64,000 bases of DNA, from positions 61,814,001 to 61,878,000 of the forward strand of contig OX638159.1 in NCBI GenBank assembly GCA_951804945.1. The letters run 5' to 3'. Below are positions 2,305 through 46,440 of this stretch, one piece after another. The notes under the pieces were generated by a model. The model searched no databases, was not told where the DNA came from, and saw only the letters and a program-made list of their open reading frames with translations. Position 1 is the first letter of the stretch. Every line of letters starts with the position of its first letter. The stretch comes from Podarcis cretensis. Lineage: Eukaryota. Position numbers and translations under genes: made by a program.

Positions 2305-2584
2305 ATGTATATAAAGATGGCCACGTTAGCAAACGGACAAGCAGACAATCCCAGCCTCAGTAGCAACCACACTAACCCCAACACCAACGGGCACATGAAC
2401 GGATTAAATCACAGTCCAGGGAACACATCCACCATTCCCATGAAGGACCACGATGCCATCAAGCTCTTTATTGGGCAAATCCCTCGCAACCTGGACGAGA
2501 AGGACCTGAAACCTCTCTTTGAAGAGTTCGGAAAGATCTATGAACTGACGGTGCTGAAGGACAGGTTTACTGGCATGCACAAAG
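2305..2584 (+). CDS. CELF4: CELF4 (CUGBP Elav-like family member 4) coding exon 1: N-terminus and first part of RRM1
   Basis: Translates [94 protein letters not shown]. The [15 protein letters not shown]-terminus is the one I recognise for CELF4, and KLFIGQIP is RNP2 of CELF RRM1. Similarity stops at AAAG|GTGAGG (phase-1 donor at 2585). A second in-frame ATG lies at 2317. Confidence 0.95.
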
Positions 2585-2857
2585 GTGAGGTCCGCTTCTT
2601 AACTTTCCCCCTTATTCGCAGGGGCTTGGAGGAGGGGAGAGTCCGGGGAAGGAGGTGGTGCTGGTGGGGGGCAGATCCTGCTAGGTTGGAAGCCCATAAA
2701 GAGAGGAGGTGGGGGTGGTGGAAGGCTGATCTCTTATAGATCCGACTGATCTCCAGGGTGGGGGAAGTTTAAACACAAATGTAGCTAGCAAGAGCCCACC
2801 AGGGAAACGAAGGGAGGGACCGCAACTCTCCATAAGGGTGCATGGGAAACGATGGAC

Positions 2858-23546: not shown

Positions 23547-23843
23547 TACTTACTTACTAACTTATTTCTAGAGATGCTGGAGATGGAACCAGATAGCCTT
23601 TGGCATTTGAAGCTACCTTGAGTGTGATGATACCCTCCTCCATGGCCATACATAGTTATCCATATGGTGGCCAGAGTACTTATGGGGCAATGCCCATAAG
23701 CTATGATGCCATCTTGGTGAAAACCTGTTCCCTTGAGTGCCTGCCCTACCTCCCCCCCCCCAACAATACTTTGGCCCTCTGTGGTTAACACTGAGAGGCC
23801 TGGACCTCATTGACAGGGATTCTCTCTCGTTCTCGCTCTCTTT

Positions 23844-24207
23844 ACAGATAGGTAGCCGTGTTGGTCTGCCATAGTCAAAACAAAATAAAAAAATTCCTTC
23901 CAGTAGCACCTTAAAAACCAACTAAGTTAGTTCTTGGTATGAGCTTTCGTGTGCATGCACACTTCTTCAGATACACTGAAACAGAAGTCACCAGACCCTT
24001 CTATATACTGAGAAGGTGGGGAGGGGTATTACTCAGAAGGGTGGTGGGACTGGGTGATTGGCAGATAGCTGTGATTAGCCTGTTGATGACTCTTAACGAC
24101 CGCAATAGGTCTTACAGGAAAAAGCAAGGGGTGAGAAGGTGAAAAATGGCTTTGTCATGTATAATGAGATAAGAATCCAATGTCTTTGTTCAGACCAGGT
24201 CTCAGAC
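23844..24207 (-). mobile_element. Penelope-like element 3' fragment (ORF C-terminus plus pseudo-LTR)
   Basis: Minus strand 24196-24155 encodes GLNKDIGFLSHYT*, resembling the C-terminus of PLE GIY-YIG domains; hammerhead motif downstream; 12-bp TSD CTCGCTCTCTTT (23832-23843, 24208-24219). Confidence 0.85.
23937..23974 (-). ncRNA. Minimal type I hammerhead ribozyme motif
   Basis: GUAU-CUGAAGA-a-GUGUGCAUGCACAC-GAAA-GC-UC-AUAC: stem I GUAU/AUAC, intact CUGANGA and GAAA cores, stem II hairpin, palindromic AGCU stem III, NUH triplet CUC. Confidence 0.8.
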
Positions 24208-25619
24208 CTCGCTCTCTTTGTGTGTGTGTGACAGAGAGGGAGCAATGTGCATATCTTGCATGCCCTTGCATTTTACAAGCCCAATCTCAACAAGCACACA
24301 GGCCTCCAGGATGGAGGATCAAGAGAGCTGTGTAAGTGTGCGCAGAAACTAGCCTCCCGTTTTTGCATTTGGGGCTTTGCCCTCTTTTGCCATGAGCCTC
24401 ATCCACCACAGGCAAGTGGCCCTCAGAAAATTGCCCAGAAAAGAATGTAACCCTTGGTTGTAAAAAGGTTCTAAGCTGACTTTTGGAATGAGCAGAGGGG
24501 TGGACCTGATGGTTTTGTTTCTTTGTCCAGTTGCTATGATTCTATGGGCACTTTCTGATACAAGAATTGTAGGGTATATCCACAACATTTCATGTGGCAA
24601 TGTAAATGCTATTGGAAACCACAATTGCTTTTGAGTCACCATGACCACATGATGTATGGCCCTCTCACATTATGGGGTGGATACACACAGACACAAAAAT
24701 GCTCGCTTTCATAATGTATTAAGCAACTTTCAAAGTTTCACAGCACAATTTTGTATCGGGGAATTGGACTTTATGAGACTTGATTGCATGAATTGAGCCA
24801 ATATTGATAATCATGGTTACATTTAACAATTAGTCTCACTCGTTTCATCTAGATACAGGCAGCAGCATATTTTGGAATACCATTTTAAATATTTTCTTTT
24901 CTTTAGAATAAAATTTGTAAGCATTAAAAAAAACAACTTGCTGACAATAGTAACAGGCATTTTGCTAAGCCATCATCACCCTTCAAACCTCTTGCATGTA
25001 GCCTCACCCATTTCGCTGAACTTATTCCTTTCTTCCCAGCAAGGCAAATGAATGCTACATTTGCTGCAGCATGATGGTTTGGAATAGGGATATTAATTTC
25101 CATACTTCTGTGAATCATTCCCAGCTTTCTGTTCGAGGACAGCCGAGGAGTTGCTGTTGCTTCGGAAACGGGACCCAGTTGAAAAGCATCTGGGAGCAGA
25201 AGAGCAGATCTATTCAGTGCAGCAGAAATCTCACTCACACACTCAGGGAGGGTCGCTGGAGTGCGCTGTTACTCACAATCAGGTTTTGTAATCAGTTTCA
25301 GCAGGGAAAGTTGGAGAGTTTTCTTTTGAATGCCAGCGGAGCATGATCAACATCTGAAATGCGCTTTCATCTGAATCCCGAGAATCAGTGTGACTCAGTT
25401 TCATCAAACCATGCTGTTTGGTTTGGGATGAACTCAACTGTTGCTCCATCCCTGGCCATTCTAACAACACATAGGAATGAATTGCTTCAATTGGTGCCAT
25501 AAGTGGGCACTTCTTACTTTGCTCCTGATGCTGGTATTTCCTTATTAACAGATGTGATGGTCAACACACCATCTTTTTCTGCATTGAATGCATGCAGAAG
25601 TTCTGTTGTGCCTTGGAGA

Positions 25620-26308: not shown

Positions 26309-26444
26309 CAGTGTTTCCCAACCTTGTGCCTCCAGCTGTTTTTGGACTACAATTCCCATCATCCCTTGCCACTGGTCTTGCTAGTCAGGGATGATGGGAG
26401 TTGTAGTTCAAAAACAGCTGGAGGCACAAGGTTGGGAAACACTG
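26309..26444. mobile_element. 136-bp palindromic hAT (Charlie-like) MITE
   Basis: Long near-perfect inverted arms beginning CAGTGTTTCCCAACCTTGTGCCTCCAGCTG; 8-bp TSD GAATATAG. Confidence 0.9.
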
Positions 26445-37155: not shown

Positions 37156-37929
37156 TATGGAAGTAGGATGGAAAAATCAGAAGGATTTTAAGCTGTCACT
37201 TTTTTAAAGGAAAACTTTTGCAATGGTGTGGAGTAGGTCATTCAGTCCATGTTGAAGCCTCACCTTATGATCATCACTTTCACCAGGCCTCTCTCTGGGG
37301 GCCAACATGCCTGGGCAATTTCTTGGGTCCCACTGACCCCCCAAGCCCCCGACAGATGCGTATCTTTTAAAAGGGGTGGGAATCTTCGGCCTCAGTCCCA
37401 AATGTCCCTCCCCCAGGCCTTTCTATTTGTCCCTCCAGAAGGTGTGGCCTCAGTGAGGGGGTGTGGCCTGGGATGAGCCACAAGAGCCAAATAGAAAGGG
37501 TCAGGGATGCATTTGGCCCTTGTGACTCTCCTCAGACCACACCCCCTCCCTGAGGCCACACCCTCTGGAGCACTTCAGCCTGGCTACAATGTGTTCTTGA
37601 ACTGTGGCAATGCCTCTTCCATACCCTCCAGTTGTCCCTGTTTTCCAGGGATATCCCCAATTTAGTTTCTGATTCGATCCTGGAATGTCCCACTTTTCCT
37701 TAGGATGTCCCTATTTTTCATTGGTGAAATGTTGGAGGATACAGTAGGATGTCCCTATTTTCATTGGAGGGTATGGAGTTACCTGACCCATCTGAAGGCA
37801 ACCCTGTATAGGGAAGTTTTTTAATGCTCTATTATGCTTTTTTTTATATATATGTTGGAAGCTGCCCAGTGTGGCTGGGGCAACCCAGTAAGATGTGTGG
37901 GGTATAAATAGTAAAATTATCATTATGGA

Positions 37930-38116
37930 CAAAACAAAATAAAAAAAATCCTTCCAGTAGCACCTTAAAGACCAACTAAGTTAGTTCTTGGTATGAGCTT
38001 TTGTGTGCATGCACACTTCTTCAGATACACTGAAACAGAAGTCACCAGACCCTTCTACTGGAAGGAATTTTTTTATTTTGTTTTGACTATGGCAGACCAA
38101 CACGGCTACCTATCTG
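37930..38116. mobile_element. Penelope-like insertion made of two inverted pseudo-LTR pieces
   Basis: 37930-38057 matches the 23.9-kb copy; 38055-38116 is the reverse complement of that copy's terminus; 12-bp TSD TATCATTATGGA (37918-37929, 38117-38128). Confidence 0.85.
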
Positions 38117-38189
38117 TATCATTATGGAATGGGACATCCCTATTTTCATTGGAGAAATGTTGGAGGGAATGCTCTTGCTTTTGTGGAAG

Positions 38190-44915: not shown

Positions 44916-46440
44916 CCAGGTGTTTTGGGACCACAACTCCCATCACCCCTGGCTAACGGGACCAGTGGTCAGGGATGATGGGAGCTGTAGTCCCAAAACA
45001 TTTGGAGGGTCGAGTTCACCTATGCCTGCCCTAGGTGGATCGAGTGGTCCCCACAACCTACTCACAACAGCCTCTGCATATTGCAGACTGCGCTTGGTAA
45101 TGACAGGCCTGTCTTTCAGGGATGCACATCCCCCTCACCACCAGTACTGATCTTCTCAGTGAGGGATCCCTGATAAGTTTCCAAGGAACCCCGGGAATCT
45201 TCAGATCACAGCTTGAAAACCCCTGCACTAGCTTATTGTTATAATACTTGCAATTAATTTGCACAGTGCTAGGTGAGGCTTTCCTGCCCCATCCCATATG
45301 CTGTGCACCATCTTCCTCTTCTTCTGTTGTTTCCTTCCTTTCTTTGTCATTATTTGAGTCCAATGTCTCTTTTGCTTAGAAATCTCGCTGTTGAAGGTCT
45401 GCGGGCTAATAGGCACTCAACGGAACAAGAAAGCGATATCTAAAATGAACTGGGTGCTGAAAGGATGGCAGTGCAGTACCGGATAACAATGGCTCTTTTT
45501 TCCCAATGTGGACCTTTATTTTGAAATAAAATTAAAAAGCGTAGGCAATGAAAGGGGGAAGAATACAGGCAACACTGCCACAAGATTACTCAATAGCAGA
45601 GGGAAAGAGACGTGCTGTCTATAATCCTCGTCTCCAGTCCCTGGCGTATCATTCCTAGCTCAGTGGTTTAGAGCATTTTTTTTCCCATGGAACAAATCCC
45701 AGGTTCAGTCCCCAATGGTAGGGCTGGGGATGTCATTTGTCTGAAAGCCTGGAGAGCCACGGCCAGTAAGAGTAGACAGTGGTGAGCCAGATGGACCAAT
45801 TGGTCTGACTCTGTAGAAGACAGCATATGTTTTCCTTTGTTCCATTTTTTTTCCTTTTAAATTAGAATCCACATCTTGAACTAGTACCTAATCTGAAACA
45901 GGGGTTATCCTTCACAATTTGTACTTCTCCAAATTTTGTTAGCTGGCTCAAGACGTGTACAAAATAGTATGTTAGGGGAAATTGTACATAAAATACATAC
46001 TGTACATAAGGGGGGGGGAGCATTACAATGTTTTGTAACAGGAATGTTTGCTTGCAGAATTGTGGATATTAGTCAAAACTGCATACAAATATCTGTATTA
46101 TTCCAAGAAATTTGCACTAAAATGCTACCACATGTTCATTGAGTCCCCCACTCCATCACCCCAAATGCAAATTACTTAAGAAATATGAATAACTGAATTC
46201 AAGAGTGGAAAAGTGAGAGGCCAAAATGGACAGATTAGTCTATCTCTAGGTAAGTTTGTGGAACAATTACTCAATGACCCTGTGCATTAAACACCTAATC
46301 TCAAGGTTGTGGGTTTGAGCCCCATGTTGGGCAAAAGGGGGGTTGAACTAGATGCCCCTTGTGGTTGTCATCCCCCAACTCTACAATTATATACTTCTCT
46401 GTCTGTTAAGAAGTAAATCCTTCTGAGGTCAGTGAGATAT

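Follow-up and report, generated by a model that had tools for sequence, protein, structure and literature searches.

A minimal hammerhead motif at the likely 5' end of the RNA of a Neptune-type Penelope-like element in Podarcis cretensis

The window analysed here is a stretch of 64,000 nucleotides of Podarcis cretensis DNA (assembly GCA_951804945.1, contig OX638159.1, positions 61,814,001 to 61,878,000), which contains the first coding exon of CELF4, 100% identical to a wall-lizard CELF4 entry, and two insertions of a Penelope-like element (PLE; Table 1). CELF4 exons extend over 800 kb on the forward strand. As the window ends before exon 2, the hammerhead motif of the first insertion falls within intron 1 of its host gene, in the antisense orientation given by the initial annotation. 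Re-reading of the sequence returned the same 38 letters, coordinates and minus strand, and the distance to the PLE stop codon, earlier put at about 180 nt, measures 181 nt (stop at 24155-24157, the frame ending in GLNKDIGFLSHYT). The 12-bp target site duplication (TSD) proposed for this insertion also holds: it is the sole exact repeat of at least 8 bases between the two flanks. The same annotation spoke of two well-preserved cores. That part has to be corrected, because the second copy carries a single change, G12A, that turns GAAA into AAAA, and the window therefore holds one intact core, not two. This broken copy is the inverted arm of its insertion, whose tail points to the forward strand. 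Two further observations concern the window itself. In its antisense orientation the T-run of the first insertion places an AATAAA into the CELF4 pre-mRNA (23884-23889), and hairpin repeats at 26335-26418 and 44919-45002, members of a repeat family dispersed in the window, score against Rfam mir-5408 below its gathering score.

Table 1. Coordinates of the PLE insertions and host-gene features in the window.
Feature	Position	Strand	Remarks
CELF4 first coding exon (host gene)	2311..2589	+	next exon beyond window
TSD, left copy	23832..23843	+	last 2 bases also fit element end
5'-truncated Neptune-type Penelope-like insertion (ORF end, pLTR, tail)	23844..24203	-	96% identical to full-length unit in L051
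'Tail': element ORF start codon and first codons (MADQHGYLSV)	23844..23872	-	
Minimal type I hammerhead motif	23937..23974	-	sequence features; predicted cut 23941/23940, from hammerhead numbering
Putative transcription start, helix I base 1	23974..23974	-	from 5'-end pile-up and excess G before it
TATA-like box	23998..24007	-	31-33 nt upstream of helix I base 1; putative promoter function
Last codons and stop of RT-GIY-YIG ORF	24155..24203	-	
Extra bases beside insertion (4)	24204-24207		
TSD, right copy	24208..24219	+	
Second insertion, 12-bp direct repeats	37918-37929 and 38117-38128		
Second insertion, inverted arm with broken hammerhead	37930..38057	-	motif at 37991-38028, G12A at 38002
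Second insertion, forward arm with tail, without hammerhead	38055..38116	+	

The motif consists of a 4-bp helix I, the core CUGAAGA, a bulged A, a 5-bp stem II (GUGUG/CACAC), GAAA, and a loopless palindromic AGCU. Judged by all sequence features tested, it is a PLE minimal hammerhead. The core elements CUGANGA, GAAA and UH are present and are kept across about 105-125 arms save for CpG decay and C17T; the short helix I (4-5 bp in this class), the bulged base before stem II and the G10.1-C11.1 pair are all found, and positions 15.2-16.2 form a palindrome with no loop 3. The earlier assignment to the Penelope-like minimal type I hammerheads with a palindromic helix III is backed both by full-length elements and by the definition given in the accessible text of PMC4209133, and the core is indeed conserved in the family, with C3-A9 altered in at most 1 of about 105 arms. 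Hammerhead numbering predicts cleavage after CUC. The motif in the window is not a chance occurrence: a minimal-hammerhead descriptor matched once in the window, with no match in 100 shuffled windows or in 1.6 Mb of reversed sequence. The bare core pattern was found at chance level (6 matches, 7.2 expected) and the fold energy of the motif is unremarkable (z -0.44), and we therefore do not count either as support. Rfam covariance models gave no hammerhead family among 13 matches at E of at most 1.

Stem II and its loop (23949-23962) together make up a perfect 14-nt palindrome, through which two RNAs could pair in a competing 14-bp duplex at a calculated -28 kcal/mol (nearest-neighbour energies). 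A 10-bp hairpin is predicted right after the hammerhead in the 5' leader, at about 23912-23934.

Five long loci were examined for the anatomy of the complete element, and full-unit spacing was seen in four of them (L051-L054), where one exact copy of the motif precedes the ATG by about 100 nt and another follows the stop, so that both pLTRs have it. The full-length unit of 3,011 bp has a single ORF of 910 aa with an RVT_1 match (E 9e-12), a GIY-YIG match at the cut-off, and a CX4CXXC linker at residue 770, between RT and EN. A CX2-5CXXC linker is common to Neptune and Nematis and absent in Penelope/Poseidon, according to the accessible text of PMC8557442; by its linker, which Nematis also has, we class the element as Neptune-type. 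One locus contains a 2.3-unit tandem (L051:978-7894, G000:C14) made of 895 bp and two 3,011-bp units that are 99.97% alike, with two open 910-aa frames; as it is flanked by 13-bp direct repeats, it likely arose in one insertion event from a longer-than-unit template.

The family is large and uniform. Exact copies of the 38-mer number 6,322 genome-wide (3,134 + 3,188), and the best 30 genomic matches of the insertion, the window itself aside, are 96-99% identical and share a common 3' end with variable reach into the ORF; a fixed 5' boundary at the start of the window copy, which we had considered, was rejected for this last reason. Among the 100 exact copies listed there are 16 head-to-head inverted pairs within 5 kb and no same-strand neighbour within that distance. 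The copies, with their pLTRs, partial tandems, inverted 5' arms and a 30-40 bp tail, have the features reported for EN+ PLEs. The inserted copies have lost G12 (G12A in 10 of 121 arms) and C11.1 (C11.1T in 13-14 of 121) by CpG decay, and these losses run at CpG rates, as would be expected without selection to keep the two bases. Otherwise the motif is nearly invariant across about 105-125 arms, and no helix covariation is visible because the copies are too young; in 1.6 Mb we found only the Neptune-type family and no diverged PLE family for such a comparison. Two other insertions are worth recording. A 1.7-kb sense copy in CELF4 intron 2 (G000:C11:62115423-62117301) has an intact core, a short inverted arm and a 472-aa match to the element ORF. 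The same inverted junction is present in two insertions with different flanks (L151-L154), which suggests a recurrent junction or a re-copied fold-back unit.

If the hammerhead were processed before reverse transcription, copies might be expected to begin at the predicted cut. We mapped the 5' ends of 55 arms, some of which belong to the same insertion and are thus non-independent, and complemented the map with one genome-wide motif count. The arms came from two sets: 29 of 30 loci chosen by a motif beginning exactly at the cut site (L131 repeats L130 and was left out), and alignment rows from five genes, of which 26 of 30 were used because four lack the anchor base. Of the 55 arms, 22 have their start between -5 and +5 relative to helix I base 1, a rate of 7.3% per base at risk, and in ten the start is precisely +1, whereas a single arm begins at the cut site (bases 33-37; 0.4% per base); the rate elsewhere is 0.4-1.1%, and helix I base 1 and the cut site differ at p 7e-6 (Fisher). 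The edge of the stem II palindrome is the start of another 4 of the 55 arms, some of them snap-back junctions (L136/L137). As for the cut site, just one insertion among those mapped could be a copy of cut RNA, a fold-back in the glypican intron (G000:C4, about 94,553,700) whose two arms start at bases 32 and 34, adjoining the predicted cut.

The base that precedes +1 is also informative. Genome-wide, 2,483 copies have a non-T (that is, non-reference) base at this position, and a hand count of 100 such copies listed gave 72 G, 20 A and 8 C, against an expected 31% G. An extra G at the 5' junctions of full-length LINE-1 copies marks capping (PMC11702581, accessible text). We compared eight G junctions with the inverted sequence of the element: four were unexplained by it (two of these share one junction), two were explained and two were ambiguous, so part of the G excess may be due to template switching. 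The extra G is therefore likely, though not cleanly, the reverse-transcribed cap. At the other end, the 3' ends of 131 arms fall into two clusters, at about +86-100 and +125-140, both downstream of the cut site; a two-cluster tail signature of this kind has been tied to two internal RT start sites in the part of PMC11167929 that is available.

Considering that the copies start at helix I base 1 with a G before it, and not at the cut site, our preferred reading, in which we have good confidence, is that the hammerhead likely makes up nt 1-38 of a capped element RNA and that this RNA was likely copied back mostly uncut. The copy in the window is likely a neutral passenger.

The best-placed alternative, which we nevertheless regard as unlikely, is the model of Cervera and de la Pena, in which the hammerhead would routinely cut tandem transcripts to 3,011-nt units that become circles and serve as rolling-circle templates, the re-ligated site then looking uncut. 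Same-strand motifs do lie about 3,011 nt apart in L051-L054, the 2.3-unit tandem sits between direct repeats, and the core is intact in a young family, all of which such a route could account for. Against it, starts at helix I base 1 preceded by an extra G cannot arise from a circle, and starts at base 35, as expected of linear cut RNA, are seen in 1 of the 55 arms. The neighbourhood of the listed exact copies, inverted pairs and no same-strand motif, is not that of tandem units either, and in the model the double hammerhead, at -11.1 kcal/mol, falls short of the stability of two separate monomers (2 x -6.8), core contacts being unscored in these values. Tandems such as that in L051 may still derive from a circular template.

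Four raw-read RNA runs, chosen by species label and so perhaps from another species than the window's, were aligned to the full unit. In one run (X23) reads over the ORF body come predominantly from a single strand, the pattern that sense transcripts would give in a stranded library. Over the region of the hammerhead both strands have reads (196/157 and 205/149). Loose read ends fall at the first base of the motif in two runs (X21 and X22). No pile-up of read beginnings or ends was listed at the cut site, in fragmented libraries that are insensitive to cleavage. A set of reads (7 in X21 and 10 in X22) joins the ORF start back to a point three bases before the hammerhead (L051:1932 to 1739), and this joint could be a short tandem copy or a 194-nt circle.

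The same reads bear on a further reading of the 5'-end pile-up, as a 3' splice site (a pyrimidine tract and CAG, as in D. virilis Penelope) or a stall of the RT instead of a transcription start. TTTCAG does end just before the motif, with CAG one base ahead of helix I, and the intron of D. virilis Penelope stops where helix I begins (PMC4209133, accessible text). Against splicing, none of 15 of the 18 read joints is a GT..AG skip to this site, and upstream of the truncated arms we find inverted element or flank, not an upstream exon; a stalled RT, on the other hand, would presumably stop on the 3' side of the stems and not past them. We consider either version improbable, and a transcription start at helix I base 1 the better account of the pile-up.

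The initial annotation had also read the antisense position of both window copies as compatible with selection against sense ribozymes, the idea being that introns lose intact sense hammerheads because these cut the host pre-mRNA. We looked at 16 insertions in 1.6 Mb covering five genes (CELF4 in full, three paralogs in part, and half of a glypican gene, 400 kb out of about 800), with gene strand taken from exon matches and nested genes possibly included. Solo insertions are antisense in 4 of 4 cases (p 0.125), insertions that have a full-length arm in one orientation only are split 9 antisense to 2 sense (p 0.065), and all six intact sense arms lie in inverted insertions, where the partner could sequester them. 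Counted by intact core, inspection gives 9 antisense against 6 sense (p 0.61) and the descriptor 7 against 5, three of the intact sense cores lying within CELF4 itself. LINE fragments in the same five genes, oriented by their reading frame and which we take to be RTE-like, are 58:20 antisense, a lean that does not differ from 9:2 (Fisher p 0.72); a SINE control in these genes is 127:118. The second window copy is broken in any case, and a lone minimal motif did not self-cleave in vitro according to the accessible text of PMC4209133. With intact sense cores in CELF4 and other genes and an antisense lean no stronger than that of the LINE control, purging finds little credence with us as an explanation. 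The confinement of intact sense arms to inverted insertions and the antisense solos leave room for weak selection, and the sample of 16 insertions is small enough to leave room for a modest effect. There is no clear sign that the window motif matters to CELF4, and the copy is likely a neutral passenger in intron 1.

Taking the hammerhead as the probable start of a capped RNA, the life cycle of the element could run as follows. The pLTR promoter would start transcription at helix I base 1 and the RNA would be capped. The element's RT would begin internally, at about +88-100 or +125-140, and by running to the cap would give short and fold-back copies, while an RT crossing the hammerhead into the ORF end on read-through tandem RNA would give copies like that in the window. 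Cleavage, if it occurs, would detach the capped first 34 nt, upstream of the start codon. In the accessible text of PMC4209133 dimers of the minimal motif are cleaved weakly, and for the Poseidon element of Anolis that of PMC11167929 reports that cleavage needs protein and is dispensable for insertion, with uncut RNA as the main template. We offer, as a tentative proposal that we think rather less probable than its opposite, a stronger version: that the Neptune hammerhead is the first 38 nt of a capped mRNA in which cutting acts as a protein- or dimer-gated decapping switch that silences the element's own translation and does not make templates, and that the short copies in their thousands, which have an extra G ahead of a start at base 1, preserve in the genome capped 5' leaders that were copied uncut through internal initiation, and are not truncated 3' ends.

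Minimal hammerheads of PLEs were already known, and to judge from its sequence the present lizard family adds one more. As far as the accessible text of PMC4209133 (Cervera and de la Pena 2014) goes, the motif resembles the pLTR hammerheads of metazoan PLEs in its 4-bp helix I, the bulge between positions 9 and 10.1, the G10.1-C11.1 pair, the palindromic 15.2-16.2 without loop 3, and its presence in both flanking repeats, as well as in its thousands of dispersed single copies and close inverted pairs. It differs from the Schistosoma motifs described there, which have a stem II of 7-8 bp, in having 5 bp and a 4-nt loop within a perfect 14-nt palindrome, and its uniformity (6,322 identical copies) contrasts with the high variability of PLE hammerheads. 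That text names turtles and snakes but not the present lizard family. Our literature search, in which most subscription papers were out of reach, found no paper that treats this family or reports a cap G for PLEs; the motif itself may stand in the supplements of PMC4209133 or of the bioRxiv paper cited below.

A close parallel is PAc (Poseidon_Ac) of Anolis carolinensis (Frangieh et al. 2024, PMC11167929), a PLE that also comes from a lizard. Its pLTR too has a hammerhead, its tail is likewise set by two 3'-end positions, uncut RNA is its main template (here likely), and no RNA-seq ends fall at the cut site. Unlike PAc, the present element has a Neptune-type Cys linker. Moreover, the PAc ORF starts in stem II, whereas the hammerhead described here is confined to the 5' UTR and precedes the ATG by about 100 nt. 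PAc copies have their 3' ends 111-118 nt into the ORF; those of the present family end either immediately ahead of the ATG or about 30-35 nt inside the ORF. The complex insertions described for EN+ PLEs (Arkhipova 2013, PMC3846280; Craig 2021, PMC8557442) have the same head-to-head inverted arms, one-sided tail of 30-40 bp, partial tandems, palindromes at inverted junctions, and TATA with an initiator-like site in the pLTR; the proposal there allows for an antisense template, whereas the extra G at base 1 of our copies speaks for a sense template with a cap. Non-LTR retrozymes (PMC7229834 and bioRxiv 10.64898/2026.07.22.740005, accessible text) share with the window copy the type I hammerhead and a relation to PLEs. 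We tried and rejected a retrozyme assignment: the 100 listed copies include no same-strand neighbour within 5 kb, the only tandem period seen is 3,011 bp, and unlike retrozymes the copy is part of no short tandem array, lacks the canonical 6-bp/4-bp helices, and is a fragment of an autonomous element.

The single copy in the window and its antisense position in CELF4 are thus ordinary. For the family, which is young and uniform, the motif likely begins where the RNA itself begins, and the copies likely derive from uncut RNA, in agreement with the in vitro result from Anolis. The role of Penelope hammerheads would then narrow to a direct question, whether cleavage decaps and silences the element.
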